Below, in pieces: positions 12,830 through 55,633 of a stretch of DNA of 64,000 nucleotides; the first letter of the stretch is position 1; the number at the start of each line of letters is the position of its first letter. A program made the position numbers and the translations under genes. Source of the stretch: a bacterium (GTDB lineage Bacteria > Auribacterota > UBA3054); the NCBI GenBank assembly GCA_017616555.1, contig JAFZXZ010000032.1:115862-179861 (forward strand), given 5' to 3'. The notes beneath the pieces were generated by a model that saw only the letters and a list, made by a program, of their open reading frames with translations, was not told where the DNA came from and did not search any database.

Positions 12830-14215
12830 ATGGATAATGAAATAAACACGAATGAGCAAGTGAAAGGCTGGGAGATCATGAAGAAGATCATCAAGGTCTC
12901 CTTCCCGATGCTCATAACCAACGCCTCTTTCGCGGTCCTTTTGTTCTGCGACCGCATGATGCTGGCCCATTATGAACTGGACGCCGCGGGCGCCTCCATG
13001 GGCGCCGGCGTCCTCTCCTTTACGGTTCAGAGCTTTTTCGCCGGCGTGGCGCTTTACACCACCACGCTGGTCGCGCAGTATTTCGGCGCCAAGGACAAGA
13101 AGATGGTCTCCGTCTCCGTCTGGCAGAGCCTTTATTTCGTCTGGCTGGTCGGCAGCACCGTGCCTTTCCTCACGAGGCCCTTGGGCATGTTCATTTTGGA
13201 GAAGGCAGCGCATTCCCCGAACATTCTCGTGATGGAGAAAGCCTATTTTTCCTACGTGGCTTTCTACATGATCATCCCTTTGACGAATATCGTGCTGTCG
13301 AGCTTTTTCAACGGCCGCTCAATGGTCTGGGTCTCCACCATCGCCAACGTTTTCGGCTGCATAGCCAACGTCTTTTTGAATTACGTCTTCATCTTCGGAA
13401 AATACGGTGTTCCGGAAATGGGTATTGAGGGCGCTGCAATAGCGACCATCATCGCCGGATTTATGACGACGCTGGCGCTTTTTTCCTTCATCGTCTGCAT
13501 GCCTTCCACGAGGGAATATTCCTTCTTTGGCGCCTGGCGTTTTAGGAAATCGTCATTCCTTAACCTTCTCAGGTTCGGACTTCCGACCGGCTTGATGTTC
13601 GGACTCGACAACGCCGCCTTCGCGGCGCAGATCCTTTTCACCGGGAGAATAAGCGACGACGCTCTGAACGCCACCACCGTGATCTTCAGCATACAGAACC
13701 TTATATTCCTGCCGATCCTTTCCGTGGCCCACGGCGCGGCCATCATAATGGCGCAGTTCATCGGCATGGACAGGAAGGATCTCGGGAAGAAGGCTGTTTA
13801 TCAGGGGCTTTTGCTCGGCGAGATCCTGGTCGTCGTAATCGCTGTTGTCATCATAGCTTTCACAAGGGAGATCTTCGACACTTTCTGCGGCGGGAAGCAT
13901 ACGGAAGCGATCTACGTGATGACGAGGAATCTTCTCTACACCATGATGATCTTCAACTTCGCGGACGTTTTCAACGTCGGCCTTAACAACGCCCTGCGCT
14001 CGGCAGGGGACACCGTCTTCCCGATGGTCACTTCTGTCTCTCTCAGCTGGCTCTTCTTCGTGCCGGCGCTTTATCTGGCGACGGAAGTCATGCACCTCGG
14101 CATCTACTCCGTGTGGTCCATAACGGGCGTGCTTTTTTTAGTCTCCGCGATCATTTACTGGGCTCGCTTCAAAAGCGGCAAGTGGCAGACGTTCCAGGTC
14201 ATGGAAAAGAATTAA
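12830..14215 (+). CDS. MATE-family multidrug efflux transporter
   Basis: It has 12 TM segments with a MATE-like N-terminus (IIKVSFPMLITNASFAVLLFCDRMMLAH). The start codon could be the M at 12881. Confidence 0.8.
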   Translation: MDNEINTNEQVKGWEIMKKIIKVSFPMLITNASFAVLLFCDRMMLAHYELDAAGASMGAGVLSFTVQSFFAGVALYTTTLVAQYFGAKDKKMVSVSVWQSLYFVWLVGSTVPFLTRPLGMFILEKAAHSPNILVMEKAYFSYVAFYMIIPLTNIVLSSFFNGRSMVWVSTIANVFGCIANVFLNYVFIFGKYGVPEMGIEGAAIATIIAGFMTTLALFSFIVCMPSTREYSFFGAWRFRKSSFLNLLRFGLPTGLMFGLDNAAFAAQILFTGRISDDALNATTVIFSIQNLIFLPILSVAHGAAIIMAQFIGMDRKDLGKKAVYQGLLLGEILVVVIAVVIIAFTREIFDTFCGGKHTEAIYVMTRNLLYTMMIFNFADVFNVGLNNALRSAGDTVFPMVTSVSLSWLFFVPALYLATEVMHLGIYSVWSITGVLFLVSAIIYWARFKSGKWQTFQVMEKN

Positions 14216-31249: not shown

Positions 31250-31729
31250 TTAGCGAGCGTTTGCTTTGCGGCCGACCTCGAAGGCGATCGTGTTCGATTC
31301 CCGGAGTTTTTCGGGGAAGTTGTTTTCCAAAGCTTTCTGCCAGTTCTCTTCCGGAATTTCCGGAAGCATTTTGGAAAGATAGCCCAGCAGCGCTACGTTC
31401 AGTCCTTTCGGATTCGGAAGCGATTCTATTTTTATTACCTCCGGCTCGATGACAACGGTCTTTTCGTTGCAGCATAGCGCGTTCGGGTCTTTTTGCGAAG
31501 CATCCAGAAGGACGAGGAAATCAGCCGTGCCTGCGGGGATCATTGGGCTTTTGATACCTTCTCCGAAACGCACGTCGGAACTCACTGAACCGCCGCGCTG
31601 GCTCATGCCGTGCACTTCCGCTTTCTTAACGTCGAAGCCTGTCAAGAAAGCGGCTTCCGCGGTGATGTCGGATGCTCTCAAAACGCCCTGGCCGCCGAGG
31701 CCCGCAAAAACTATATTGATATTCTTCAT
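31250..31729 (-). CDS. iorB: indolepyruvate:ferredoxin oxidoreductase, beta subunit
   Basis: IVFAGLGGQGVLRASDI is typical of the pyruvate/ketoisovalerate oxidoreductase gamma-like family. It lies downstream of iorA. Confidence 0.7.
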   Translation of the reverse strand: MKNINIVFAGLGGQGVLRASDITAEAAFLTGFDVKKAEVHGMSQRGGSVSSDVRFGEGIKSPMIPAGTADFLVLLDASQKDPNALCCNEKTVVIEPEVIKIESLPNPKGLNVALLGYLSKMLPEIPEENWQKALENNFPEKLRESNTIAFEVGRKANAR

Positions 31730-31739
31730 TGTTTTCTCC

Positions 31740-33338
31740 TTAATTTTTCTTTTCCTCAGCCTGAGCTTTTTCCCTGTCTTTAAGATGTTTCAAGGCTAAG
31801 AGGCAGGAGCGTTTCATGATTATCATACAGACGTCTTCTTTATCCAGCTGTTCCTGGATGAAGTCTTTCAGCGTATCCTTCATGGCAAGTGGATCGACTT
31901 CCTCGACTCTCACGCCGATGGCTCTGGCGACGGCGGCGGGATCGACTCTCACGGTCTCTGTATGGTCGAGCCTGCGGCCTGTGCCCGGATGTTCCTGCAG
32001 ACCGGTCATGGCGGTGGTGGAGTTGTCAAGCAATATCACGACGTGGCCGTGGGGCGGTCTGTTATAGACCATGTCCACGAGTCCCGTAAGTCCGCTGTGC
32101 ATGAAGGTAGAGTCGCCGATGACGGAGACGATCCTCTTTGCCTGCTCGGCGGGCAAGACTTCGCGCATGCCGAGAGCCGCGCTGATGGAGGCGCCCATAC
32201 AGACGCAGGTGTCCATGGCTTCATAGGGAGGCAGGACGCCAAGGGTATAGCAGCCGATGTCGCCGCAGACCGTGCAGCCCAGGTCATGCAAAGCCTGGAA
32301 GGTAAGCCTGTGCGGACAGCCCGGGCAGAGCTGAGGGGGTTTTCCGGGAGCGGGCGCGGGATCGGGAGTAACGTCGTCAGCGGCGAGTTTTTTAACTCTG
32401 GCCACGTTCAGTTCGCCAAAGCGGAAGGCTTCCTTTTTGCCACGGACATTCATGCCGTTGGCCAGTAAGGTTTCCACTACGATGGGGTCGCCTTCTTCCA
32501 CGACGAGATTGTCTTCATGGGAATTCACGAATTCTTTGATCTTGGCCAGGGGCAGGGGATACGTCATGCCGGGCTGCATGATCCTCGCTTCGGGCAAAGC
32601 TTCCGCAGCGTGCATGGCGGAGATGCCGGTGGCGATGACGCCGGATTTGGCGCCTTCAGGACCAAGGAAGGTGCAGGGGCCGTTCTCACAGTTCCATTCC
32701 TCCAGGTCTTTCAATCTTTTTCTTAATCTCACATGCGCCAGTCTCGCGAAGGCCGGGACCATGACGTGGCTCTTGGCATCCTTAGTATAGGAGGGCGTCT
32801 CGGGCTCGCTGAAAGTTCCGATCGAAACGATGGTCTTACTGTGGCAGACCCTGGTGGTCAGGCGCAGGATTACCGGCGTTCCGAAACGCTTGGACAATTC
32901 CGTCGCCAGGATGAAGTAATCGTAGCACTGCTGGGAATCGGCGGGTTCCAGCATCGGGAGTCCAGCGGCCACGGCGTAGCGGCGGGAATCCTGCTCGTTC
33001 TGGCTGGAAGCCATGCCGGGGTCGTCCGCGGCGCAGATGACAAGCGAGCCCTTGACTCCGGTGTAGGCGGCGGTGAAGAAGGGGTCCGCGGCCACGTTCA
33101 TGCCCACGTGCTTCATGGTGACCACGGCCTTGCCGCCCGCCAGCGCCGCGCCGATGGCGACTTCCGCCGCCACTTTCTCATTGGGCGCCCACTGGGCGTA
33201 GCCGCCCAGGGCGGAGAAAGTCTCCAAAATTTCCGTGGAGGGAGTTCCCGGATAACCTATCCCGAGGTTCACTCCGGCCACTCTGGCGGCGTGGGCGATA
33301 GCCTCGTCGCCGTTCAAAAGCTTCTTCATTGGATCCAT
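31740..33338 (-). CDS. iorA: indolepyruvate:ferredoxin oxidoreductase, alpha subunit
   Basis: The TPP-binding region and the C-terminal ferredoxin Cys motifs (CPGCPH, CVCMG) are present. Length is 532 aa. Confidence 0.8.
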   Translation of the reverse strand: MDPMKKLLNGDEAIAHAARVAGVNLGIGYPGTPSTEILETFSALGGYAQWAPNEKVAAEVAIGAALAGGKAVVTMKHVGMNVAADPFFTAAYTGVKGSLVICAADDPGMASSQNEQDSRRYAVAAGLPMLEPADSQQCYDYFILATELSKRFGTPVILRLTTRVCHSKTIVSIGTFSEPETPSYTKDAKSHVMVPAFARLAHVRLRKRLKDLEEWNCENGPCTFLGPEGAKSGVIATGISAMHAAEALPEARIMQPGMTYPLPLAKIKEFVNSHEDNLVVEEGDPIVVETLLANGMNVRGKKEAFRFGELNVARVKKLAADDVTPDPAPAPGKPPQLCPGCPHRLTFQALHDLGCTVCGDIGCYTLGVLPPYEAMDTCVCMGASISAALGMREVLPAEQAKRIVSVIGDSTFMHSGLTGLVDMVYNRPPHGHVVILLDNSTTAMTGLQEHPGTGRRLDHTETVRVDPAAVARAIGVRVEEVDPLAMKDTLKDFIQEQLDKEDVCMIIMKRSCLLALKHLKDREKAQAEEKKN

Positions 33339-33463: not shown

Positions 33464-33502
33464 TTTGCTAAAATATATTAAAGTATGTACAGAGAGGTTT
33501 TT
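33464..33502 (+). promoter_or_regulatory. extended -10 promoter plus RBS leader of FGE-domain gene 1
   Basis: ttTGcTAAAATata is an extended -10 element. agagaggtttttATG is the RBS and start. It is near-identical to 36568..36607. Confidence 0.4.
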
Positions 33503-36500
33503 ATGAAACGCTTTTTTTCTTTCGCCGCCATCATTTTCACGGCCAGCTCGCTTTTTGCCGGATCTATTTGTACCCAGAAAGTAGTGACAGCGCAGGGTTT
33601 TGTGAAAGGCTCCACAACGGTCAGTTTGAGCGGGCAGATGACGGAATCCGCCATGGACGGTATTGCCGGAGGCGAAACCATAGCCGTCTATAACTCTCTC
33701 GACAGTTATTTGGTTTTTCCAACGCTGCTTCAAAAGACCAAGACAGGTTACGGAAAAAAGTTCAACACAAAGAACGTTTCCGTAAACGCGAAGAACGGAA
33801 AATTCCAGTGGACGGAAAAGGACGTCACAAAATATCTTTGCTTCGCTGTTGGAAGAGAAAGAATAAAGCCTGACAAAGCCACTTTAAAATCCAGCGGCAC
33901 GGTGGACACCGCGGATCTTGCAAAACTTGACGACAAAAAGCTAACCGTTTACGATTATTCCTGCGCGGAAAAAGGGCTGGGGCATCTCGCTTCGCTATCT
34001 TGTCCCCTTGAGAAGAAAGGCAAAAATTACAAGTATTCAAAAAAAGATCAGGATCTGCAGGTGAAGTTGTCCGCCAACTCCAACGGCAAGGTAAGCGCTT
34101 CTTATAAACTTCAGCCTAACGTCGCTTCTCCGGCTTTTATAGACAACGAGTATGTGTTTACGAACAAATACGATTATTCTTTGGTAATTGTCGGCGAAGG
34201 CGAAGTGTATTCCGATTTCTACGGACCTGATCAAGTCGAATTCGACGTAACCAAAAACAGTGACAAGTTTCGCTTTTTTTACTGCAAAGGGGTAAATGTC
34301 ACGAACAACCTCATGACTTTGGAGCTGAATGAAGACACTGAGGTCACGGCGGTTTTCGGAAACTATGATTTTAGGCTAAACGTAATTGGCGGCGGTTCTG
34401 CCAAATTTGAATTCACCGGGCCGGACGAGGTGGCGATTGGAGCGCTGAAAGACAGTGCGCCTTTCCGTCACTTCTTGGTGAACGGGAGAATATATACCAG
34501 CAGTAACATTCATCTTATGCTGACAAAGGATACGGTCGTGGAAGCGGTCTTCGGGACTTATGATTTCACGACGAGGGTCATTGGAGGCGGCTACATAAAT
34601 TATGAATTCACCGAACCGGATCTCGTGAAGATCAAAGCGCTGGATGGAAACAAGTTCTTCCGTTATTTCTTGGTGAACGGTCAGAAACGCACGGAAAAGT
34701 CGCTGCAGCTTTCGCTGCAGGAAAACACCGTGGTCGAGGCGGTCTTTGGAAATTACGACCTCTCGTTCGAAATTGAAGGAAACGGTTCGGTGGATTATGA
34801 ATTCACAGGACCGGACAATGTGGAAGTGAGAGTTCTGGATGGCGACGCGCCGTTCCGTAACTTTACGGTCAACGGAGAATATTGCGCGGATGAGACCATG
34901 TCTCTTGTCTTGTGGGAAGACACGGTGGTTAAAGCTGTTTTTGGAACTTACGCCTTCAGAACGGAAGTTTTAGGCAACGGATCGGAAGAGCATGAATTTT
35001 TGGGACCGGATCTAGTGGAAGTCCGCGTTCCCCAAAACAGCGCCTTCTGGCGCTACTTTACGGTGAACGGCGAAACACGCAAGAACACGACGACGCTGCT
35101 TCTTTATTTGAAAGAAGACACCGTGGTCGAGGCGGTCTTCGGAATATACGCCTTATATTTGGGTGTCGTCGGCCCCGGGCAGGTGAGCCGCGAGTTCACA
35201 GGGCAGGATGAAGTTGAGATAAAAGTGACCGAGGGCAGCGATCTTTTCCGCTTCTTTAATGTGAACAGGATAATTTGCAGCGATAGTTCGATCCAGCTCT
35301 CTTTGGAGCATGACACGGTTGTCAATGCGGTTTTCGGCAGATACCGTCTCTCGGTGGAGATCGTTGGCGACGGCTCTCTGGATTACGAGTTTAAAGGGCA
35401 GGACGATGTGGAAATAAAAATCCCCGAGGATGCGGAGCACTTCCGTTATTTAACGGTCAACGGAAACAAAAGCTTTGAAAAGAATTTGCTTGTCAAAATG
35501 ACAGGGGACACCGCGGTCAAAGCGTTCTTTGGGAAATATGACTGTGAAACTGTCGTTGTTGGAAGCGGGATCTTAAAAAGCGAGTTCACGGGAGCCGACG
35601 AGATAACTCTCCGCGCGATCAACGAAGAAGATATATTCAGCCATTTTGAATGGAATGGCTGCGTCACAAATCTGTCGCCTGTTTCCATCCAGCTTGTTTC
35701 CGACACCGTCATCACCGCGGTGTTTTCGGCGGCCAATTATATGGTAGTTGATCTAAGCCGCGGAACTTCGGCCAAAACATGGTCGTCCAGGATCACGACT
35801 GACAAACCGGATGTCACGAGCGACACATGCAGAGGCGAAGAACTTTGGTTAAGGTATGTGCCGCCCGGCGTCTACATGATGGGATCGCCCCAAAACGAAG
35901 CGGGCCGCGGAAATAGGGAAGATCAGCATGAGGTAACTATAACCAAAGGTTTTTACATAGGTATTTTTGAAGTGACTCAAAAGCAATTCAAATACATCAC
36001 GGATACGAGTTATCACTCAGACAAGGAAGCAACCTATCCAGTCCGCAGTGTTAACTATAATCAGTTGAAAAGCGATGCCAGCATTACTTCGAAATCCGTC
36101 ATTAAAGTCATGAGAGACAAAACAAGGCTTCAGTTTGACCTTCCAACTGAAGCACAATGGGAGTATGCCTGCCGCGCTGGCACGACCACGGCCTACAACA
36201 GCGGAAACAACATGGGTGACAAAGGCTTCGACCTAACGGAGATCTGCATAGATATTTATGTCGGGTCGCCCCAGAAAGTCGGAATTAAAAAGCCTAACAA
36301 ATGGGGCCTTTACGATATGCACGGCAACGTTTGGGAATGGTGCCTTGACTGGTATACCGACAATTTGGGTTTCGATTCTGTCGTCGACCCAACTGGCCCT
36401 GAAACGGGCGAAAAGAAAGTTTTGCGCGGCGGTTGTTATCGGAGCTGGGAGAATGAGTGCCGCTCCGCTTACAGATCCTATCTCGAGCCAGACCATTATG

Positions 36501-36556
36501 TTTCTCCTAATGAGGATCACCGTTTCGGCTTCCGATTCGTAATCAACGAAAAGTAG
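33503..36556 (+). CDS. giant secreted protein: N-terminal domain, 8 InlB-B-like repeats, C-terminal FGE-sulfatase (SUMF1-like) domain
   Basis: It has a signal peptide (MKRFFSFAAIIFTASSLFA). There are 8 repeats of ~66 aa (YDF..VIGGG...EFTGPD.VE......FR.F.VNG......L.L.EDTVVEAVFG). The C-terminus carries FGE-family motifs (WGLYDMHGNVWEWCLDWY, RGGCYRSWENECRSAYR, HRFGFRFV). Confidence 0.7.
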   Translation: MKRFFSFAAIIFTASSLFAGSICTQKVVTAQGFVKGSTTVSLSGQMTESAMDGIAGGETIAVYNSLDSYLVFPTLLQKTKTGYGKKFNTKNVSVNAKNGKFQWTEKDVTKYLCFAVGRERIKPDKATLKSSGTVDTADLAKLDDKKLTVYDYSCAEKGLGHLASLSCPLEKKGKNYKYSKKDQDLQVKLSANSNGKVSASYKLQPNVASPAFIDNEYVFTNKYDYSLVIVGEGEVYSDFYGPDQVEFDVTKNSDKFRFFYCKGVNVTNNLMTLELNEDTEVTAVFGNYDFRLNVIGGGSAKFEFTGPDEVAIGALKDSAPFRHFLVNGRIYTSSNIHLMLTKDTVVEAVFGTYDFTTRVIGGGYINYEFTEPDLVKIKALDGNKFFRYFLVNGQKRTEKSLQLSLQENTVVEAVFGNYDLSFEIEGNGSVDYEFTGPDNVEVRVLDGDAPFRNFTVNGEYCADETMSLVLWEDTVVKAVFGTYAFRTEVLGNGSEEHEFLGPDLVEVRVPQNSAFWRYFTVNGETRKNTTTLLLYLKEDTVVEAVFGIYALYLGVVGPGQVSREFTGQDEVEIKVTEGSDLFRFFNVNRIICSDSSIQLSLEHDTVVNAVFGRYRLSVEIVGDGSLDYEFKGQDDVEIKIPEDAEHFRYLTVNGNKSFEKNLLVKMTGDTAVKAFFGKYDCETVVVGSGILKSEFTGADEITLRAINEEDIFSHFEWNGCVTNLSPVSIQLVSDTVITAVFSAANYMVVDLSRGTSAKTWSSRITTDKPDVTSDTCRGEELWLRYVPPGVYMMGSPQNEAGRGNREDQHEVTITKGFYIGIFEVTQKQFKYITDTSYHSDKEATYPVRSVNYNQLKSDASITSKSVIKVMRDKTRLQFDLPTEAQWEYACRAGTTTAYNSGNNMGDKGFDLTEICIDIYVGSPQKVGIKKPNKWGLYDMHGNVWEWCLDWYTDNLGFDSVVDPTGPETGEKKVLRGGCYRSWENECRSAYRSYLEPDHYVSPNEDHRFGFRFVINEK
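34169..35745 (+). repeat. 8 in-frame tandem coding repeats (~198 nt each)
   Basis: The protein-level periodicity is YD(F/L)...AVFG, repeated 8 times. The repeats are diverged at the nucleotide level. Confidence 0.6.
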
Positions 36557-36567
36557 GTGATCAAATT

Positions 36568-36607
36568 TTTGCTAAAATATACGCATAATCCGAATAGAGA
36601 GGTTCTT
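36568..36607 (+). promoter_or_regulatory. extended -10 promoter plus RBS leader of FGE-domain gene 2
   Basis: tttgctaaaatata...atagagaggttcttATG is conserved with the paralog leader. Confidence 0.4.
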
Positions 36608-39085
36608 ATGAAACGCATTCTTGTTTTCGCCGCCATCCTTTTCATGGCTAATTCGCTCTTCGCCGGCTCCGTTTTGACCCAGAGAGTCGTAAGGGCCCAG
36701 GGCTTTTTGAAAGGCTCCACAACGATCAGCTTGAGCGGACAGCTTGACCAAGCCTTCTTGGACAGCCTGGCTGCCGGAAACGGCATGGCGATCTATAATT
36801 ACCTGGACAGCTATTTGACTTTCCCGATTTTGCTTCCCAAGACCAAGGGGGGTTACGGTACGAAATCCAAAACTCAGAGCATTTCCGTCAGCACGAAGAA
36901 CGGCAAGTTTTCCTGGACGGAAAAAGACGTGACGCCTTACTTCGCTTTCGCCAGCGGCTTTGAAAAAATTAAACCTCTCAAGGCAACTTTCAAATCATCC
37001 GGCACGCTACAGGGCGGCGGCCTTGACGATCTCAGCACGAAGAAATTTGTGGTCTTCGACTTTCCTTGCGATCGCCAGGGCTTAGGTTACCTCGGTTCCT
37101 TGGCCTTCTCGCCGGAAAAGAAAGGCAAAAACTACAAGTTTACCTACAAAGAGGATAATTGGCAGGTGAAGGTCTCCGCCAATGCCAAGGGCAAGGCCAC
37201 AGCTTCCTACAAGCTGCCGCCCGATGCAGCCTCTCCCGCGTTTGTCACAGACGAGTATGTTTTCACCAACCTATATGATTACACTTTCGAGCAGATCGGC
37301 GAAGGAACAGTCGAGCACGGTTTCGTCGGCCCTGATCAGGTCGAACTGCAAGTGACCGAAAACAATGACAAATTCCGCTATTTCCTCTTCAACGGGGAAA
37401 AGATCACAAACGACTATCTCCTGGCCGACCTTGAGCAAGACTCCGAGTTCACAGCCGTCTTCGGAACGTACGACCTCACTGTGGACGTTGTTGGGGAAGG
37501 TAACGTTGTGACTGATTTCATCGGCCCTGATGAAGTAGTTGTCACGATTGGAGAAAGTGAGGGGATTTACCGTTACTCATATGTCGACGATGAAAAAACC
37601 ACGGAGACGAGCCTGACGCTTCAGCTTGAGAAGGACACGCAGTTCACCGCGGTCTTCGGAACATACGATCTTGCCGTAGGCACGGTGGGCGACGGATCTG
37701 TGGAGGTTGAATTTGTCGATCAAGATAAGGCTGAGGTGCGCATTGTGGAACAGGGCGGCCTCTACCGCTACGCACTGGTCGGCGGAGAGAGGACCACGGA
37801 GACGAGCTTCACCATTCAGCTTGACGGCAACACCGACATCACCGCTGTTTTCGGACAATACGCCCTTTCCGTTACCGTAGTTGGCGAGGGTTCGGTGGAT
37901 TACGAATTCATAGGAGCTGACAAAGTGGAAGTCAGAGTTACGGAGGGCGACGCGCTTTTCCGTTATTTTGATGTGAATGGCGTAAAATATTATGACAACC
38001 CGATGACCGTTGTGCTTACGAAAAACACCGAAGTCGAAGCGGTCTTTGGGACTTATAAACTCGAAGTGGTGATTTCTGGAAAAGGTTCTGCTGATACAAA
38101 GTTCACAGGCACTGACAGCGTTAGGATCACTCCCATTGGCGGAGAGGAAGCTTTCCAAAGCTTCTCCTGGAATGATTGCGTTAGTTATGAATCTCCTCTG
38201 CTCCTCGATCTGATGGCGGATACTGTTGTCACAGTGACTTTTGTCAAGGTGAATTATCTGGTCGTTGATATCAGCGGCGGATATACGGCGGAAAGCTGGC
38301 CGCATAAGATCTCAGAATCCGGTCCGGACGTTGGAAGCGACGTCTGCAGGACTAAGGAATTGTGGCTCAAATTTGTTCCCTCCGGTGAATTCAGAATGGG
38401 TTCTCCAGAGAGCGAGTACGGCCGCGGAACCAGGGAAGTTGCGCATCAGGTAACTCTGACCAAGGGTTTTTACATCGGCGTTTTCGAATTGACCAGAAAG
38501 CAGTACGCGCTGATCGCGGGAACAGTTCCCGCGAGTTCTGATGATGACCTCTGCCCTGTCACTAAGGTGACTTTTGATTCTTTGAGAGGAACATCCAAAG
38601 GAGCTAATTGGCCTGCTGACGATGAAGTTGACGCCGGGTCCTTTATGGGCATATTAAGAGCGAAGACCGGCTTGCGTTTCGACCTGCCCACAGAGGCGCA
38701 ATGGGAATACGCTTGCCGTGCCACGACGACTACGGCTTTCAACAACGGCAAGAATCTGGACGACGACGATCTCAATTTGTTTGAAATAGCCTATTACAAG
38801 GGAAACGCTAGTTATCCTCAGAAAGTCGGCAGTCTGAATCCCAATGCCTGGGGCCTTTACGACATGCACGGCAATGTCTGGGAATGGTGCCTCGACTGGT
38901 ATACGAATGATTTGGGCACAGCCCCTGTTACTGATCCGGTCGGTTTGGCAACAGGCTATGAGAAAACATTACGCGGCGGCAGCTTCAATGACGAAGCGAG
39001 CGCCTGCCGTTCCGCTTACCGAGCTCATACGGAAACAGACCATACAATGGACCGTCTCGGCTTCAGGCTGGTAATCAATCAGTAA
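36608..39085 (+). CDS. giant secreted protein, paralog: N-terminal domain, 5 InlB-B-like repeats, C-terminal FGE-sulfatase domain
   Basis: The N-terminal ~220-aa domain is collinear with paralog 1. There are 5 repeats. The C-terminus has WGLYDMHGNVWEWCLDWY and RGGSFNDEASACRSAYR, with a single Cys in the FGE catalytic region. Confidence 0.7.
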   Translation: MKRILVFAAILFMANSLFAGSVLTQRVVRAQGFLKGSTTISLSGQLDQAFLDSLAAGNGMAIYNYLDSYLTFPILLPKTKGGYGTKSKTQSISVSTKNGKFSWTEKDVTPYFAFASGFEKIKPLKATFKSSGTLQGGGLDDLSTKKFVVFDFPCDRQGLGYLGSLAFSPEKKGKNYKFTYKEDNWQVKVSANAKGKATASYKLPPDAASPAFVTDEYVFTNLYDYTFEQIGEGTVEHGFVGPDQVELQVTENNDKFRYFLFNGEKITNDYLLADLEQDSEFTAVFGTYDLTVDVVGEGNVVTDFIGPDEVVVTIGESEGIYRYSYVDDEKTTETSLTLQLEKDTQFTAVFGTYDLAVGTVGDGSVEVEFVDQDKAEVRIVEQGGLYRYALVGGERTTETSFTIQLDGNTDITAVFGQYALSVTVVGEGSVDYEFIGADKVEVRVTEGDALFRYFDVNGVKYYDNPMTVVLTKNTEVEAVFGTYKLEVVISGKGSADTKFTGTDSVRITPIGGEEAFQSFSWNDCVSYESPLLLDLMADTVVTVTFVKVNYLVVDISGGYTAESWPHKISESGPDVGSDVCRTKELWLKFVPSGEFRMGSPESEYGRGTREVAHQVTLTKGFYIGVFELTRKQYALIAGTVPASSDDDLCPVTKVTFDSLRGTSKGANWPADDEVDAGSFMGILRAKTGLRFDLPTEAQWEYACRATTTTAFNNGKNLDDDDLNLFEIAYYKGNASYPQKVGSLNPNAWGLYDMHGNVWEWCLDWYTNDLGTAPVTDPVGLATGYEKTLRGGSFNDEASACRSAYRAHTETDHTMDRLGFRLVINQ
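37274..38260 (+). repeat. 5 in-frame tandem coding repeats (~198 nt each)
   Basis: It has the same repeat family as in 34169..35745. Confidence 0.6.
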
Positions 39086-39106: not shown

Positions 39107-39137
39107 ATCCCGGAGTTTCGCTCCGGGATTTTTTTTT
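39107..39137. terminator. bidirectional rho-independent terminator
   Basis: aaaaaaatcccggag-tttcg-ctccgggatttttttt sits between convergent genes. Confidence 0.75.
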
Positions 39138-39825
39138 AGCGAGTGAAGAGAAGGCCCAATTCGAAGAGGGCATAGGCGGGAAGGAAAAGCAAAAGCTGGC
39201 TGACTACGTCCGGGGGAGTGGCGATCGCCGCAAGGATCAATAGGGCGACTATGACGTAGGGTCGCGCTTTTTTCATTTTGGCGTGGTCGATGATCCCGAA
39301 GCGGTTGAGGACGATAACTACAAGCGGAAGCTGGAAGAAGAGTCCGCCTGCCAGCATGAGTCCTCCTGCGAGTCCCAGGAAATTCGCGAGCCCGAAGGTG
39401 GGCTGAAGAGTGGGGCTGGCGAAACTGAAGGCGAAGCGCATCAGGATGGGAAGAATGACGTAGAAAATGAAGGCGGCCCCGGCGATGAAGAGAAGGGAGG
39501 AAAAGACAACGGCTTTGCCAAGAACTTTCTTTTCTTTCTTGTAGAGAGCCGGAGCGACGAATGTCCAGAATTGCCAGGCGATGAAAGGGAAAGCGATGGC
39601 GAAGGACATGATGGCGCCCATTTTTAGTTCCGCGATGAAGGCCTCCATTGGAGAGAAATAATGGAGAGTCGCCTGCTCGGGTGGAAGAAGGAGATTCGTG
39701 AAAACGGGGATCAGTTTGCCGGCTAAAAACCAGCAGACTGGGAAAAGAACAGCGACCGCTAAGAGGGAGCGGAGAAGGACTTTTCTCAGGGCTTCAAGGT
39801 GTCCTAGAAAAGAGTTTTCTTCCAC
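39136..39825 (-). CDS. tatC: Sec-independent translocase subunit TatC
   Basis: HLEALRKVLLRSLL and six TM segments are present. The proposed GTG start at 39825 lies just after the tatA stop. The track's upstream K/R-rich extension is the antisense frame of tatA. Confidence 0.75.
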   Translation of the reverse strand: MEENSFLGHLEALRKVLLRSLLAVAVLFPVCWFLAGKLIPVFTNLLLPPEQATLHYFSPMEAFIAELKMGAIMSFAIAFPFIAWQFWTFVAPALYKKEKKVLGKAVVFSSLLFIAGAAFIFYVILPILMRFAFSFASPTLQPTFGLANFLGLAGGLMLAGGLFFQLPLVVIVLNRFGIIDHAKMKKARPYVIVALLILAAIATPPDVVSQLLLFLPAYALFELGLLFTR

Positions 39826-39829
39826 AGTT

Positions 39830-40033
39830 TCAGTTTTCTTTCTTTTCTTCGGTTTTGGAAGAGCTGTCGTCGGACGCGACTTCTTCCACTTCGGTCTCCA
39901 CTTCGTCTTTGGCTTTCTGGAATTCCTTTTTGGCTTTGCCCAGAGCCCTGGCCAGTTCGGGAATGCGCTTGGCGCCAAAAAGGAGGAGCACCACAATGAT
40001 GATAAGGATTATTTCTGGATAGCCTAAACTCAT
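39830..40033 (-). CDS. tatA: Sec-independent translocase subunit TatA/E
   Basis: The N-terminal TM (IILIIIVVLLLFGAKRIPELARALGKA) and an amphipathic helix are present. Length is 67 aa. Confidence 0.8.
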   Translation of the reverse strand: MSLGYPEIILIIIVVLLLFGAKRIPELARALGKAKKEFQKAKDEVETEVEEVASDDSSSKTEEKKEN

Positions 40034-50542: not shown

Positions 50543-50586
50543 ACAATTGCCTTGCTAAAAAACCGTCCTTTTCTTACAATATAAGT

Positions 50587-51942
50587 GTGAAAAGAAGTGT
50601 GTTTTACCGATGTGTGTGGGGTTTAAGGCTCCTTCTTTCCGCCCTGACGGTCGCTTGGGGCCTTTTCGTCTTCATTGGCTCAAATGAGTTTCTTCAAAAC
50701 TTGCCGATGTGCCAGCTGGGGCCGGCCGTTTTGCGCTCCTTCTTTGCTTTCGGTCTTAGCGCTATTGCGGTCGTTCTCACCATAGTGCTTCTGACGCTTT
50801 TCTTCGGCCGCCTGTTCTGCTCCTTCATGTGTCCTTTGGGCTCAGCTTTGAGTTTTATCGCGCTCTTTTTCAAAAAAGGGAAGAAAAAGATCTATCCCTT
50901 TATCGGCGGATCTATACTCGGCTTGTTCATCGGTTCTTTGGTTTTCGGAGTAGCCTTCGTTTTCCGTCTGCTCGACCCTTATTCGCTCTTCGGCCGAACG
51001 CTTACCGCGCCGCTTTGGTTCGGCGTTATTTTCCTTGCCGTTATTCTTGCCGTAACGTTTTTCTTCGGCAGGATCTTCTGCGCCAGCATATGTCCAGTCG
51101 GCCTGCTTCTCAGCCTTATCGCCAGAAGATCTGTTTTCGGCATGATCATTCCCAAAGAGTGCGTGCACTGCGGCAAATGCGAGAAGGTCTGCCCGACAGG
51201 CTGCATAGACCAAAAGCAAAGCAAAGTTAGCAACGCATACTGCGTCATGTGCCTGGATTGCCTGACGGTCTGCCCTAAGACCGGACCGACTTTTTCTTTC
51301 CTTTGGAAAAAATCGCAAGAGGAGAAAGCGCCGAACTTGGAGCGCAGACAATTTCTTATTTCCCTTTCCGTGGGCGCCGCGGTCGGCTTGATGGGCGGCG
51401 GACTTTTCAAGGCGGTCTCGAAGAAGCGCGCCAAAGAAGAAGGCGAAAAGGAACTTTTGGTAAGGCCTCCCGGCGCCATAACAGAAAGCTCTTTCTTAGC
51501 GAAGTGCACCGCCTGCGGGCTATGCGTTTCAAAATGCCCGCAGAAAGTGCTGACCTTGGGCCCGGCCGGTTTCGGCGCTCCGCGCCTTGATTTCAAAAAG
51601 GGCTCCTGCTCGCTTGATTGTACGCTTTGTTCCTCGATCTGCCCGACCGGCGCGCTGAGATCGATCGCGCCTGAAAAGAAGAAAACTTTCGTTATCGGCA
51701 AGGCAAATTTCAATGCAAAGAAATGCATCGTATTCCAGGGCGAAGGAGCCTGCGGGAAATGCGCCGCGTCCTGTCCGACCGCAGCCATAACCTTAAGAGC
51801 CAACGGCGCGCCGAAACTGGAAGCTGAAGCGTGCCTCGGCTGCGGCAAATGCCAGAATGTCTGTCCTATCGGTGCCATGCATGTCGCCGGCGCAGCGATA
51901 CAACATTATCTAGATGACCTGAACCAAGGAGCCTCACTATGA
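50587..51942 (+). CDS. membrane polyferredoxin, NapH-like N-terminus fused to NapG-like C-terminus
   Basis: There are four TM helices with two CX3CP motifs (CSFMCP and CASICP). Two cytoplasmic-type CxxCxxCxxxCP clusters follow. An internal Tat-like RRQFLISLSVGAAVG segment is followed by four more 4Fe-4S motifs. It has a GTG start. Confidence 0.6.
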   Translation: MKRSVFYRCVWGLRLLLSALTVAWGLFVFIGSNEFLQNLPMCQLGPAVLRSFFAFGLSAIAVVLTIVLLTLFFGRLFCSFMCPLGSALSFIALFFKKGKKKIYPFIGGSILGLFIGSLVFGVAFVFRLLDPYSLFGRTLTAPLWFGVIFLAVILAVTFFFGRIFCASICPVGLLLSLIARRSVFGMIIPKECVHCGKCEKVCPTGCIDQKQSKVSNAYCVMCLDCLTVCPKTGPTFSFLWKKSQEEKAPNLERRQFLISLSVGAAVGLMGGGLFKAVSKKRAKEEGEKELLVRPPGAITESSFLAKCTACGLCVSKCPQKVLTLGPAGFGAPRLDFKKGSCSLDCTLCSSICPTGALRSIAPEKKKTFVIGKANFNAKKCIVFQGEGACGKCAASCPTAAITLRANGAPKLEAEACLGCGKCQNVCPIGAMHVAGAAIQHYLDDLNQGASL

Positions 51943-53165
51943 ACAGACGCGAATTCCTAAAGACCGCCGCAGCCGTAGCGGCGCTCATCGCCCTGGGCGG
52001 CTGTAAGAAGGAAGCGAAGACCTCGGAGAAAAAACGGGGGACTATGACCTGTCGGGAATTCCCAGGCATTGGCGCGAAAGTTTCGCTTCTCGGCTACGGT
52101 CTCATGCGCATGCCGAAAGTCGGCAACGGTCCTGAGATCGACAAGGAAAAGGGCTTCGCTCTCATCGACGAAGCCATGAAGGGCGGCATCAACTACTACG
52201 ACACCGCTTGGTTCTATCATGACGGTCTTTCCGAAACTTTTGCCGGCGAAGCGCTCTCACGCTATCCGAGAGACAGCTACAACCTCGCCAGCAAGCTTCC
52301 CATGCGCCTCCTTGAAAGCGGCGAGCAGGCAGAGGAGATCTTCAATAAGCAGCTTGAGAAATGCAAGGTCGATTACTTTGACTTCTACCTTCTGCATAAT
52401 CTGAACGGCCCGCTTTGGGAAAAGACGCTTCATAACGGCGCGGTGGATTTTGCCATGACTTTGAAAGGCAAGGGCAAGATAAAACGCCTGGGCTTCAGTT
52501 TCCACGGCGACAATAAGGATTTTCCGAAGATCTTGGACTACACCAAGTGGGATTTCGTCCAGATTCAGGCCAATTACTTCGACTGGGATAATTTCTCCAA
52601 AGAGCAGTATGAGGAGGCGACCAAAAGAGGCATCCCGGTGGTCGTAATGGAACCTCTGAGAGGAGGGGAACTGGCCAACAATCTGAGACCGGCCGCCGTG
52701 GAAGTCTTGGAAGAAGCCAAGCCGGGCTCTACCCCGGCGCAGTGGGCCTTCAGGTTCATCGCCTCGAAGCCTAATGTCCTGACGGTCCTTTCCGGCATGA
52801 CGAAGATGGAGCACCTTAAAGAAAACCTCACCACTTTCTCGCCCTTCGAGCCCATAACGCAGGAGGAAGAGCAGGTCTTGGCGAAAGCTCTCCAGATCTA
52901 CAAAGAGGACGGCAAAGTGCCCTGCACCGGCTGCCGCTACTGCACGCCCTGTCCGGCGGGCGTCGCCATTCCCGACATCTTCAAACTTTACAACGAGTAC
53001 AGGACGAAGATGAGAAAGAGGGACGCCATGAGAGAATATGAAAACCTGGGCAAGGACGCCATGGCCACGGCCTGCGTAGAATGCGGCGCCTGCTTGAAAA
53101 AATGTCCGCAGAGCATCGACATTCCCAAGGAACTCAAACGCATTCATAAAGAACTGAAAGGATAA
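51939..53165 (+). CDS. Tat-exported lipoprotein aldo/keto reductase with C-terminal 4Fe-4S domain
   Basis: It has a twin-arginine motif (NRREFLK) and lipobox ALGGC. It has an AKR core (GINYYDTAWFY, DYFDFYLLHNL) and C-terminal CTGCRYCTPCP...CVECGACLKKCP. Confidence 0.7.
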   Translation: MNRREFLKTAAAVAALIALGGCKKEAKTSEKKRGTMTCREFPGIGAKVSLLGYGLMRMPKVGNGPEIDKEKGFALIDEAMKGGINYYDTAWFYHDGLSETFAGEALSRYPRDSYNLASKLPMRLLESGEQAEEIFNKQLEKCKVDYFDFYLLHNLNGPLWEKTLHNGAVDFAMTLKGKGKIKRLGFSFHGDNKDFPKILDYTKWDFVQIQANYFDWDNFSKEQYEEATKRGIPVVVMEPLRGGELANNLRPAAVEVLEEAKPGSTPAQWAFRFIASKPNVLTVLSGMTKMEHLKENLTTFSPFEPITQEEEQVLAKALQIYKEDGKVPCTGCRYCTPCPAGVAIPDIFKLYNEYRTKMRKRDAMREYENLGKDAMATACVECGACLKKCPQSIDIPKELKRIHKELKG

Positions 53166-53168
53166 ACT

Positions 53169-54419
53169 ATGAACAGAAGAGATTTCATCAAAGGCTCCCT
53201 GGCTATCGCCGCTCTGGCGGCCCTGGGCGGCTGCAAAGAAGGAAAGGAACCCACCGACGTGAAAGCAGGTAATAGCGAGAAAAAGCAAGGCGAAATGACT
53301 AAACGCAAACTCGGAAACATCGCCAGCGGCGTTTCCCTTTTGGGCTACGGCTTAATGAGGCTTCCCCTCAAAGACCGCAGGAATCAGGCGGAAATTGACA
53401 AGGAAAAAGCCCAGGAGCTTATCGACAGAGCTATGGCTGGCGGTGTCAACTACTACGACACCGCCTGGGTCTATCACCAGGGCATGTCGGAAAGATTCGC
53501 CGGCGAGGCTCTGAAAAAATATCCGAGAGAATCCTTCAATCTGGCGGACAAGATGCCGGTCTGGGAAGTCAAAAGCTTGGACGACGCCCAAAGGATCTTT
53601 CAGGAACAGCTGGACCGCTGCCAAGTGGATTACTTTGATTTCTATCTTCTGCACTCTCTTAACGGCGGCGCCTGGCCGAACGTCAGGGACCTGGGCGCTT
53701 TGGAATACGCCAGGAAGATGAGAGAGGAAGGCAAGGTTAAATACCTGGGCTTCAGTTTTCACGGCGACAATAAAGATCTGGCTGTCATAGCCGACGAGGG
53801 CGGCTGGGACTTCGCCCAGATACAATTGAACTACTTCGACTGGGACGACTACTCCAAAGAGCAGTACGAGATCCTAACCAGCCACAACATTCCCGTCATC
53901 GTCATGGAGCCTCTTAAAGGCGGCGAACTCGCCAATCTTCAGCCCAAGACGCTGGAGATGCTGACGAACGCCAGGCCCGGGACTACCGGCGCGCAGTGGG
54001 CTTTCGAATTCATCGCCTCGCTGCCAAACGTGCTGACCATCCTATCCGGCATGACTTTTATGGAGCATGTGGAAGAGAACCTCAAGACCTTCTCTCCCAT
54101 AGAGCCTCTTGGCGAGGAAGGCAAAGAGCTTCTTGTGAAGGTCAAGGAATTCATGAAGGAAGAAGGGAAGATCCCCTGCACCACCTGCCGCTACTGCACG
54201 CCCTGCCCGGTTGGCGTAGCCATCCCCGACATCTTCAAGATGTACAACAACTATCGCTCGTCTCTCATTAAGTGGATGTCCCAGCGGGAGTATTTCCAGC
54301 TTGACAAAGGCGCCCGCGCCGACGCCTGCGTGGAGTGTGGCGCGTGCCTGAAAAAGTGCCCGCAGAAGATCAACATCCCCGAAGAATTGAAGCGCGTGCA
54401 CAAAGAGTTCACAAGCTAA
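53169..54419 (+). CDS. Tat-exported lipoprotein aldo/keto reductase with C-terminal 4Fe-4S domain (paralog)
   Basis: It has NRRDFIK and ALGGC. The AKR and Fe-S motifs are collinear with the upstream paralog. Confidence 0.7.
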   Translation: MNRRDFIKGSLAIAALAALGGCKEGKEPTDVKAGNSEKKQGEMTKRKLGNIASGVSLLGYGLMRLPLKDRRNQAEIDKEKAQELIDRAMAGGVNYYDTAWVYHQGMSERFAGEALKKYPRESFNLADKMPVWEVKSLDDAQRIFQEQLDRCQVDYFDFYLLHSLNGGAWPNVRDLGALEYARKMREEGKVKYLGFSFHGDNKDLAVIADEGGWDFAQIQLNYFDWDDYSKEQYEILTSHNIPVIVMEPLKGGELANLQPKTLEMLTNARPGTTGAQWAFEFIASLPNVLTILSGMTFMEHVEENLKTFSPIEPLGEEGKELLVKVKEFMKEEGKIPCTTCRYCTPCPVGVAIPDIFKMYNNYRSSLIKWMSQREYFQLDKGARADACVECGACLKKCPQKINIPEELKRVHKEFTS

Positions 54420-54420
54420 T

Positions 54421-55125
54421 ATGGGAAAAGCTTTTCTTCTCATAGTTTGTTTTTCTTTTGCTCTTTTTGGCGCTGATGGACAAGACTTCTCCCAATCGTC
54501 TGACAATTGCGCAAAAACAGAGCAGCCGGAGTGGGTGCCTCCTCTGGAAAAGCGATTGTTATCGGAAAACATGGAGGAGGCTCTTACCAACTGGTTTGTT
54601 TTTGTCAAAGATTCTCTCAAAGAACTTAAAGACGAGGACAGAAATAGAATAAGGGAAAACTTCTTGAAAGAATGTGCCAAACCAGGACATTTTTCTCTTT
54701 CAGGTTTTTTGAAAGAGGCGGAAAAATTTTCCAAAAACAAAAATGCTCTTCATCTCAGCGGAGTGCATATGCTCTGCTACGATGTGTTAGATTCCAAACG
54801 TTATCTTGAAAGACTGGGCTTATACGAAAAGGTTTTGGCGATAGACATTTTTTTCAATGACTTGGAAGCGTTCTCAAAAAACATGGACAGATTTCTGGCG
54901 CTCGCCGAAGCGAGCCGTACTGCTCCATATAAGGTTAACGAAGTCAGTTCTCTTATGCCTGGCAGTTACTCTTGGGATATCAGGTTTTATGTTTCGAGAA
55001 CCGCTAACAAATACGACACATATTTGACGCAAAAGCAGCAAGCAAAAGTTAAGAGACTATCCTCGGATTTGCCAACTTTTAAAGAATTTTTAATATTTAT
55101 TTTCCGAAGTATTATTAGAATCTAA
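54421..55125 (+). CDS. hypothetical protein with N-terminal hydrophobic segment (low-GC islet)
   Basis: GC is ~40% against the ~58% background. The N-terminal MGKAFLLIVCFSFALFGA is signal-like. No domain was recognised. Confidence 0.4.
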   Translation: MGKAFLLIVCFSFALFGADGQDFSQSSDNCAKTEQPEWVPPLEKRLLSENMEEALTNWFVFVKDSLKELKDEDRNRIRENFLKECAKPGHFSLSGFLKEAEKFSKNKNALHLSGVHMLCYDVLDSKRYLERLGLYEKVLAIDIFFNDLEAFSKNMDRFLALAEASRTAPYKVNEVSSLMPGSYSWDIRFYVSRTANKYDTYLTQKQQAKVKRLSSDLPTFKEFLIFIFRSIIRI

Positions 55126-55159
55126 TTGATGATTTTTGCTTACTTTGTAAAATTATAAA

Positions 55160-55187
55160 AACGCATGCCTACCGGCGTGCGTTTTTT
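55160..55187 (+). terminator. rho-independent terminator
   Basis: The hairpin aacgcatgcc-tacc-ggcgtgcgtt is followed by tttttt. Confidence 0.6.
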
Positions 55188-55369: not shown

Positions 55370-55633
55370 ATGCCGACGATCATACCAATCAGGGACCTAA
55401 GAAAAACCAGCGAAATATCAGAAATGGCACACAGCAAAAAAGAACCTATTTTCGTGACGAAGAACGGTTACAGCGATCTTGTCATAATGAGCGCAGAATT
55501 GTATGACCGCCTTGTTAGAATAAGCAAGATAGACCAGGCTATCTTTGAAGCCGAAAAAGAAGTGGAGAAAGGCGGCAAAACAGTCGAGCTAAAGAAAGCT
55601 TGGAAAAAATTGGACAAAAAATATTATGGATAA
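55370..55633 (+). CDS. Phd/YefM-family type II antitoxin (no cognate toxin gene adjacent)
   Basis: MPTIIPIRDLRKTSEISEM...EPIFVTKNGYSDLVIMSAELYDRL is the Phd/YefM signature. An aaaggagg RBS is present. GC is ~42%. The 3' end overlaps a convergent gene by 10 nt. Confidence 0.7.
   Translation: MPTIIPIRDLRKTSEISEMAHSKKEPIFVTKNGYSDLVIMSAELYDRLVRISKIDQAIFEAEKEVEKGGKTVELKKAWKKLDKKYYG

Follow-up and report, generated by a model that had tools for sequence, protein, structure and literature searches.

NapGH, the quinol dehydrogenase of periplasmic nitrate reductase (cited in PMC5449189), is a precedent for outward electron flow. In E. coli as well as in Wolinella succinogenes, NapH has four transmembrane (TM) helices, two CX3CP motifs and two cytoplasmic clusters, and NapG is Tat-exported with four clusters. 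The polytopic polyferredoxins described by Tooke et al. (2017, eLife 6:e26577, PMC5449189) are NapH–NapG fusions with five TM domains (TMDs) and a twin-arginine before TMD5. Reporter fusions showed that the MLMS-1 member (Q1NSB0, from a delta proteobacterium) needs both Sec and Tat, and the handover from Sec to Tat was attributed to the weak hydrophobicity of TMD5 and the positive charges behind it. That study was confined to membrane insertion and did not identify a catalytic partner, whereas in the locus described here the putative partners are Tat-exported aldo-keto reductases (AKRs) with iron–sulfur (Fe–S) domains. The locus lies in a 64,000-nt stretch of a bacterial contig (GenBank JAFZXZ010000032.1), which as a whole is called the window, and consists of a gene for a polytopic polyferredoxin (PFD) followed by two AKR genes.

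Textbooks describe AKRs as soluble enzymes of the cytoplasm that depend on NAD(P)H. We find, in a range of phyla, that genes for Fe–S AKRs are passed on together with PFD genes, but solely where the AKR is predicted to be exported. As judged from its sequence, the locus is a real, conserved and uncharacterized extracytoplasmic oxidoreductase module.

An initial annotation of this DNA had read the locus as an undescribed module, in which a NapGH-type quinol dehydrogenase drives the reduction of carbonyls or aldehydes outside the cytoplasm. One part of this claim stands. In the literature on exported, periplasmic or Fe–S AKRs, on COG1453 and on Tat with AKR, no description of the module was found, and the sole COG1453 match lists the protein as function unknown. 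On the other hand, the NapH–NapG polyferredoxin with an internal twin-arginine is already known as a fusion type (PMC5449189). What is new in a NapGH- or NapH-like electron-transfer role is the type of catalytic partner, a Tat-exported Fe–S AKR. The quinol-driven, respiratory-type reductase reading is unproven.

Linkage of the polyferredoxin to Tat-bearing reductases

The module genes are all on the + strand. Nucleotide positions below follow the window numbering, except at loci named L, P or by taxon, and amino acid (aa) positions are those of the protein concerned. The PFD gene (50587-51942, 451 aa, GTG start) overlaps the AKR1 gene (51939-53165, 408 aa) by 4 nt (ATGA), as had been noticed initially. 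The AKR2 gene (53169-54419, 416 aa) follows after a gap of 3 nt, and an open reading frame, ORF4 (54421-55125, 234 aa, with a signal peptide), after 1 nt. All junctions were read directly from the sequence. The stretch 50587-55125 is a single operon of PFD, AKR1, AKR2 and ORF4.

Linkage was examined with one genome per species at 80 loci, whose ORFs were called and searched with PFD, AKR1 and AKR2. A PFD homolog lies near the AKR at 19 of the 27 loci with a Tat-bearing AKR and is missing from all 53 loci whose AKR is cytoplasmic (Fisher p = 1.9e-12, kinship ignored). Co-occurrence in related genomes had been set beforehand as a test that could refute the module, and it extends here across phyla. 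At all 19 linked loci the two genes are on the same strand; 17 pairs are within ~130 bp or overlapping, and the other two are 1.5 and 3.6 kb apart.

PFD is upstream of AKR in Victivallaceae and in metagenome-assembled genomes (MAGs) assigned to “Myxococcota”, and downstream in Elusimicrobiota/Endomicrobia, Gastranaerophilales, Marinifilaceae, Tidjanibacter, Megasphaera and Desulfovibrio. The pairing taxa are Victivallales, Elusimicrobiota, Gastranaerophilales, Bacteroidota, Desulfovibrio, Megasphaera and the “Myxococcota” MAGs, and the carriers are mainly diderm anaerobes from gut, rumen and termite gut. Tandem or duplicated AKRs around a single PFD recur at L012, L046 and L083. No conserved neighbor was found at the cytoplasmic Fe–S AKR loci, which is consistent with soluble electron donors for those enzymes.

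Distant PFD homologs overlap DUF362 genes or stand alone. These DUF362, AKR and stand-alone contexts fit the modular use of NapH-like membrane Fe–S proteins (PF12801), which serve diverse extracytosolic reductases and oxidases (Meheust et al. 2021, eLife 10:e66878, PMC8238504); AKR partners go unmentioned in that study. The DUF362 overlaps were seen at two Bacteroidota loci (L089 and L090), and the polyferredoxin family may therefore have a further client in DUF362 proteins. The window itself contains, at 553-2508, a gene for a cytoplasmic DUF362+Fer4 protein and then one for a DHOD-B-type FAD/NAD/[2Fe-2S] electron-transfer subunit.

Two other kinds of protein are encoded near the module elsewhere. 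A secreted protein with a DUF1893/TM1506 domain stands beside the AKR in Elusimicrobiota and Gastranaerophilales loci (L022 6492-6977; L046 6405-6926, − strand; L064 5139-6932; L085 2993-4780), and the PFD homolog P0141 (627 aa) carries this domain fused. The DUF1893/TM1506 protein may be a third component of the module. Exported Flavodoxin_4 proteins occur near AKR–PFD at L066 (3980-6906), L086 (13754-14518, − strand) and L022 (4645-5256, − strand). Those of Megasphaera have lipoprotein signals, that of Desulfovibrio has a Tat signal, and that of an Elusimicrobiota MAG has a TM anchor.

Predicted membrane architecture of the polyferredoxin

PFD is predicted to span the membrane with Fe–S motifs on either face. 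Pfam detects two NapH-type Fer4_5 domains and multiple Fer4 domains. A script combining hydropathy, charge and motifs placed TM1–TM4 at aa 13-31, 52-72, 106-126 and 141-161 (50623-51069). The motif scan found the first CX3CP at aa 78-83 (within 50623-51069), on a K/R-rich cytoplasmic loop. By motif scan and homolog alignment, 51079-51273 holds the second CX3CP (aa 165-170) and, at aa 192-229, the 2x[4Fe-4S] ferredoxin motifs of the cytoplasmic face, which read CX2CX2CX3C at aa 192 and 219. Next come an internal twin-arginine, ERRQFL (R253-R254), and TM5 (aa 257-275), both within 51343-51411 (script and alignment), and then KAVSKKRAK. The NapG-like domain, predicted to be periplasmic, has four Cys motifs at aa 307, 341, 380 and 416 (51466-51876; NCBIfam, motif scan and alignment). 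Pfam, NCBIfam and the motif scan thus bear out the fusion of a NapH-like part, an internal twin-arginine and a NapG-like part given in the initial annotation. The four TM helices and the two CX3CP motifs are also as annotated, and a fifth helix, TM5, is to be added after RRQFL.

In its sequence features, PFD resembles the polyferredoxins of Tooke et al., to whose Q1NSB0 family it was matched by those features. Both fuse NapH to NapG and have five TMDs, of which the last is immediately preceded by a twin-arginine, is of low hydrophobicity and has positive charges behind it. Both have two ferredoxin motifs and two CX3CP motifs inside and four motifs outside, the family pattern being three Fe–S motifs inside and four outside. 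TM5 of PFD is weakly hydrophobic, and its approximate insertion energy is the least favorable of the five TM segments; approximate sums on the Hessa scale, computed with position-independent values, are +1.44 for TM5 and -3.0, -0.3 and -2.9 for TM2–TM4. Judged by charge, the N-terminus, the two CX3CP motifs and the first ferredoxin domain are cytoplasmic, and the domain with four clusters lies outside.

These features are conserved. In an alignment of 40 PFD homologs at 31-86% identity, RR is conserved to at least 90% and all Cys motifs are invariant. TM1 is conserved in all AKR-linked homologs, among which RR before TM5 and the Cys motifs are conserved as well. Public gene calls begin PFD at aa 39 or 41 (413 or 411 aa) and lose TM1; because TM1 is kept in all homologs, the long form is right. 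The exact start, which could be GTG at 50587, 50599 or 50614, is uncertain.

PFD shares with NapGH the domain content and the link from the membrane to a periplasmic enzyme, although two proteins in NapGH are one polypeptide in PFD. It has the NapH layout, with four TM helices, N-in/C-in topology, a pair of CX3CP motifs and, C-terminally, two 4Fe-4S motifs in the cytoplasm. It also has the NapG/MauM layout of a twin-arginine followed by four Cys motifs, but its signal is internal rather than N-terminal. The NCBIfam NapH models align over aa 59-245 and score below cutoff, at 85.6 vs 234 and 71.0 vs 213.05 bits (NF007013 / TIGR02163). NapG aligns over aa 245-428 (profile positions 3-198) and is likewise below cutoff, at 77.3 vs 269 and 57.1 vs 178.85 bits (NF007012 / TIGR00397). 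No nap, molybdopterin or cytochrome c genes were found within ±10 kb in identical public contigs or among the surveyed ORFs of the window. With scores so far below the cutoffs and no nap genes nearby, PFD was rejected as a NapGH ortholog. The acceptors also differ, being NapC/NapAB for NapGH and, by our reading, AKR for PFD.

PFD was also compared with the flavinylated NapH-like systems. NosR and PceC/RdhC-type systems have an FMN-binding domain flavinylated by ApbE, whereas PFD has a NapG-like polyferredoxin in its place. Pfam and NCBIfam give no FMN_bind match in PFD, an ApbE-like gene was found neither in the operon nor in the ±10 kb tables, and an identity of the NosR/PceC kind was rejected on these grounds.

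Structure-based comparison gave partial matches. The AF2 model of PFD (pLDDT 84) displays five long helices. A sequence search of the PDB with PFD matched the polyferredoxins MvhB and FwdF only, and Foldseek matched ferredoxin subdomains only (RnfB, FwdF), with no NapH-type membrane structure found.

Reductases with Tat signals and Fe–S domains

AKR1 and AKR2 are tandem paralogs with 62% identity and, by ORF calls, Pfam and NCBIfam, identical architecture. The N-termini (MNRREFLK...ALGGC in AKR1, MNRRDFIK...ALGGC in AKR2) have a Tat motif of the form RRxF(L/I)K, then an h-region rich in A/L and a lipobox, LGGC, that includes Cys22. The Tat-lipoprotein signal extends over aa 1-22 in AKR1 (51939-52004) and over 53169-53234 in AKR2. 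TAT_signal of Pfam scores 26.5 bits in AKR1 and 27.5 bits in AKR2 (cutoff 22.7), and TIGR01409 is above cutoff for both. The barrel is matched by Aldo_ket_red with E = 4.6e-37 in AKR1 (aa 51-310, within 51939-53165) and 3.4e-35 in AKR2.

Both proteins end in an 8-Cys 2x[4Fe-4S] domain, matched by Fer4_9/Fer4_17/Fer4_8 of Pfam and by motif, at aa 329-390 of AKR1 (52923-53108) and aa 337-398 of AKR2 (54177-54362). Within the C-terminal 80 residues it reads CX2CX2CX2CP at aa 329 and CX2CX2CX3CP at aa 379. Taken by itself, this domain weakly matches HdrC and SdhB C-terminal domains. The Tat signal, lipobox, Fe–S domain and tandem paralog given in the initial annotation are therefore all present.

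The same architecture is found in cytoplasmic AKRs. A scan of 1.84 billion cluster representatives (E <= 1e-30) returned 1,078 clusters, so that Fe–S AKRs make up about 1,000 clusters at 50% identity. A credible Tat signal is present in ~15 of the 150 best cluster representatives, mostly with a lipobox Cys, and ~135 of the 150 are cytoplasmic. With only ~10% of the closest 150 representatives exported and 53 of the 80 linkage loci cytoplasmic, Fe–S AKRs are indeed normally cytoplasmic, as had been assumed. Cytoplasmic COG1453-type Fe–S AKRs (AKR + Fer4_17/Fer4_8) share the architecture and all invariant residues with the window AKRs, but they stand alone, whereas the window AKRs carry Tat-lipoprotein signals and adjoin PFD.

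The catalytic tetrad (D88/Y93/K119/H153) is invariant in 31 close and 81 wider sequences and aligns to the tetrad of AKR11C1. The 81-sequence alignment comprises 28 exported and 53 cytoplasmic forms, and every invariant residue is common to both; besides the tetrad these are S187, H189, N212, D215, M237, G242-G243, S285-G286-M287, N296, Y334 and the eight Cys. Pocket residues being common to exported and cytoplasmic AKRs, the chemistry is probably the same and only the location changed. In a neighbor-joining (NJ) tree of the 81 AKRs the Tat-bearing forms fall into ~3 groups, but the tree is star-like and leaves the number of origins of the exported forms without conclusion. Incidentally, the Tat-AKR gene is split into two ORFs at L082 (7001-8233) and L085 (4858-6108), perhaps by frameshift, pseudogene formation or assembly error.

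Canonical AKRs are more distant. AKR11C1 of B. halodurans, L-galactose dehydrogenase and Tm1743 have the (alpha/beta)8 barrel and the tetrad in common with the window AKRs and resemble them in the cofactor-loop motifs, at 20-26% identity, but the canonical enzymes are soluble and cytoplasmic, without Fe–S domain or signal peptide. The closest solved AKR structures include L-galactose dehydrogenases and arabinose dehydrogenases; structure searches found no solved structure spanning AKR and Fe–S domain.

The alignment of the cofactor-loop motifs with those of NADPH-binding AKR11C1 bears on one explanation of the module, in which the AKRs are self-sufficient. They would keep NAD(P) tightly bound and shuttle hydride as glucose-fructose oxidoreductase (GFOR) does, the Fe–S domain would have a structural or regulatory part, and PFD would work for another partner or only in maturation. 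GFOR of Zymomonas mobilis is Tat-exported, periplasmic and translocated with its nicotinamide cofactor bound, a precedent for export of an enzyme loaded with NADP. It has, however, a Gfo/Idh/MocA Rossmann fold, no Fe–S cluster and no membrane partner, unlike the window AKRs. Some Tat-bearing AKRs without a nearby PFD and the other partners of the PFD family, such as DUF362, would also suit self-sufficiency. However, the eight Cys and their flanking residues are invariant in all 81 sequences, and a purely structural dicluster domain needs no polyferredoxin neighbor. The linkage to PFD is strong, confined to exported forms, cross-phylum and even extends to overlapping genes. We consider self-sufficient AKRs decidedly unlikely.

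Predicted export through Tat

The window encodes tatA (39830-40033; Pfam TatA_B_E, E = 1.6e-18) and tatC (39136-39852; Pfam TatC, E = 4.2e-58), both on the − strand, so the tatA/tatC assignment at 39136-40033 is secure. This is the export machinery that the C-terminal domain of PFD and both AKRs would need.

In other genomes, tatA–tatC is part of the module gene string itself. The order AKR–PFD–tatA–tatC was observed in four Gastranaerophilales-type loci, with tatAC named at L046 (5476-6427), L064, L084 and L085, and a Bacteroidales locus has regulator–PFD–YitT–AKR–tatA–tatC (L087, with tatA–tatC at 8818-9680). At these five loci from two phyla, the Tat system stands as if it belonged to the module operon.

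Among the 120 closest AKR homologs, only four lack the RR motif, and the N-termini of these four are missing or truncated. Its conservation in AKR and PFD homologs argues that the Tat motifs are more than chance. The nearest AKR homologs also have the lipobox, and ~50%-identical homologs from Victivallaceae/Lentisphaerae carry non-lipoprotein Tat signals; lipid anchoring of the exported AKRs is lineage-specific.

The conserved Tat motifs, the positive-inside charge distribution and tatAC in the module gene string support the periplasmic placement of the NapG-like domain and both AKRs that had been predicted. If the twin-arginines were fortuitous, the AKRs would be cytoplasmic and the C-terminal domain of PFD would face the cytoplasm, and a few Lentisphaeria AKR paralogs without a signal (L036, L038) can be taken in this sense. 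However, Tat models of both Pfam and TIGRFAM are above cutoff for both AKRs, and RR, h-region and either lipobox or AxA site are kept in nearly all close homologs and in other phyla. RR is also at least 90% conserved in PFD, whose charges fit a periplasmic C-terminal domain, tatAC occurs within the module gene string, and the homologous MLMS-1 fusion was shown to be Tat-dependent (PMC5449189). Fortuitous twin-arginines are thus extremely improbable.

Proposed electron flow through the module

We propose that the locus encodes a two-component extracytoplasmic oxidoreductase that passes electrons outward to a carbonyl- or quinone-type acceptor, and we give this proposal an even chance. Its parts differ in strength. 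The module architecture is likely, and we hold it with good confidence, while the reductive direction of electron flow is evenly balanced in our analysis.

The proposed course has an assembly part with support in the sequences and a catalytic part that we infer. First, Sec would insert four PFD helices, leaving the two CX3CP motifs and the 2x[4Fe-4S] ferredoxin domain on the cytoplasmic face. Second, Tat would place the twin-arginine-bearing fifth helix and the folded, four-cluster NapG-like domain on the periplasmic side. Third, AKR1 and AKR2 would be exported folded through Tat with two [4Fe-4S] clusters preinserted and, in this lineage, become lipid-anchored at Cys22.

For catalysis, the dicluster domain of AKR may dock on the NapG-like domain of PFD, so that an unbroken Fe–S chain would link the membrane with the active site of AKR (Asp88, Tyr93, Lys119, His153). 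Electrons would flow outward as in NapGH, either from the quinol pool or from a cytoplasmic donor via the cytoplasmic clusters. A periplasmic electrophile of the carbonyl or quinone type would be reduced with protons from the tetrad, and the two paralogs may act on different substrates. At the AKR site, the chemistry could rely on a tightly held NAD(P) or proceed as a stepwise reduction without NAD(P).

Detoxification or electron disposal is the most likely role, rather than energy-conserving respiration. Around the exported module, no conserved catabolic, sugar-transport or other transport genes were found, and the neighbors are heterogeneous. Among those seen in other phyla are regulators of the MerR and LysR types, a canonical AKR together with an SDR, an MBL-fold protein, exported flavodoxin-like proteins and a secreted DUF1893 protein. 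These genes lean toward carbonyl or electrophile stress and lend weak support to detoxification or electron disposal.

Several points weigh against outward reduction by the module. Substrate, direction, donor and docking are all inferred. Eight of the 27 Tat-AKR loci have no PFD in reach; five of them are at contig ends, and three (L018, L021, L031) are fully flanked. One Lentisphaerae homolog follows an unrelated proline-rich membrane protein, and the Fisher test of linkage takes no account of phylogeny. The pairing of PFD homologs also with DUF362 suggests that PFD is a generic conduit that tells little of AKR chemistry.

The chemistry itself raises further difficulties. To our knowledge, every characterized AKR uses hydride transfer from NAD(P)H. 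The module proteins have no flavin domain, and a [4Fe-4S] chain gives single electrons, so that a different mechanism or a different substrate class would be required. Menaquinol is at about -74 mV and the aldehyde/alcohol couple at about -200 mV, which makes menaquinol-driven reduction of simple carbonyls uphill and thermodynamically doubtful. Moreover, the nearest solved relatives include sugar dehydrogenases (L-galactose dehydrogenase) and the host is a glycan degrader, both of which fit the reverse direction.

Some ways out can be conceived. The substrate may be one that takes electrons singly, such as a quinone. A low-potential cytoplasmic donor may feed electrons via the inner clusters of PFD. 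The exported FMN proteins (Flavodoxin_4) of other loci could be the missing converter between one- and two-electron transfer.

Plausible too, given a glycan-degrading lifestyle and the resemblance to L-galactose dehydrogenase, is a reversed flow in which the AKRs are periplasmic sugar or alcohol dehydrogenases that feed the membrane. The AKRs would then oxidize aldoses, polyols or alcohols from glycan breakdown, and electrons would pass via PFD to quinones or cytoplasmic acceptors. L-galactose and arabinose dehydrogenases are among the closest solved structures, and sugar hemiacetal oxidation by quinone is strongly downhill by textbook potentials, unlike quinol-driven carbonyl reduction. The host lineage, Victivallales, and many other carriers are glycan fermenters, with glycoside hydrolases nearby. 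NapH-like modules have also been proposed to accept electrons from an extracytosolic alcohol oxidase (PMC8238504). However, NapGH itself is a quinol dehydrogenase (PMC5449189). Reversal leaves the flavin problem unchanged, as hydride must still become single electrons. Sugar transporter and catabolic genes are not conserved around the module, whose regulators and neighbors resemble stress and detoxification systems rather than catabolism, and what strict fermenters would gain from feeding the quinone pool is doubtful. Reverse flow is possible on balance, if somewhat doubtful.

Returning to the outward direction, the low-potential donor can be taken further. In such a scheme the AKRs would be flavin-free and NAD(P)H-independent, each with an active site that receives single electrons from the enzyme's own dicluster domain. 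PFD would be a quinone-independent wire exporting low-potential electrons of cytoplasmic ferredoxin through its cytoplasmic clusters, so that the module would act as an extracytoplasmic sink on carbonyls or quinones of host or dietary origin in fermentative gut anaerobes. We regard this extended scheme as unlikely. The window contains an NfnAB/GltD-like pair and a 2-oxoacid:ferredoxin oxidoreductase, at 8113-10340 and 31250-33338 (− strand for the latter), which suggest that the host is a ferredoxin-centered anaerobe and bear on the idea of a low-potential donor.

Operon boundaries and other features of the window

Directly 5′ of the PFD start, a consensus scan found a promoter-like site (TTGCTA-17-TACAAT, 50552-50580, + strand), and 3′ of ORF4 there is a terminator-like hairpin with a 13-bp stem and then a T run (55157-55186, + strand); both are pattern matches only. 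The locus, with identical AKR1, recurs on at least 16 public metagenome contigs. The closest genome matches are a yak-omasum MAG (83% identity) and Victivallaceae/Victivallales MAGs, by which the host is most likely an uncultured gut bacterium similar to Victivallales (Lentisphaerota).

ORF4 has no Pfam or NCBIfam match. By position it is co-transcribed with the module, but it was rejected as a conserved fourth component, its homologs being confined to same-species contigs. GC is 0.45 in the 2 kb around ORF4 (54-56 kb region) vs ~0.54 elsewhere, which suggests a variable insert. Further downstream, a Phd/YefM antitoxin gene (55370-55633) lacks its partner toxin, ParE, which is present in the otherwise syntenic contigs L001, L003 and L006 (about 13688-13990) and absent in L002 and L004. 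This toxin–antitoxin locus therefore appears to be strain-variable.

Elsewhere in the window, 33485-39085 encodes two large, tandem, paralogous secreted proteins (1023 and 842 aa), of which the second has an FGE-sulfatase (formylglycine-generating enzyme-like) domain at its end.

Implications

If the proposal is true, AKR chemistry would take place in a compartment free of NAD(P)H and be tied to membrane electron transfer. It would provide the first functional handle on Fe–S AKRs, with their ~1,000 clusters at 50% identity, and on the dual Sec/Tat polyferredoxins, which previously had no known partner. As the carriers live in gut, rumen and termite gut, the substrate may be a carbonyl, quinone or sugar compound that comes from host or diet, and the module may then be relevant to gut redox ecology.

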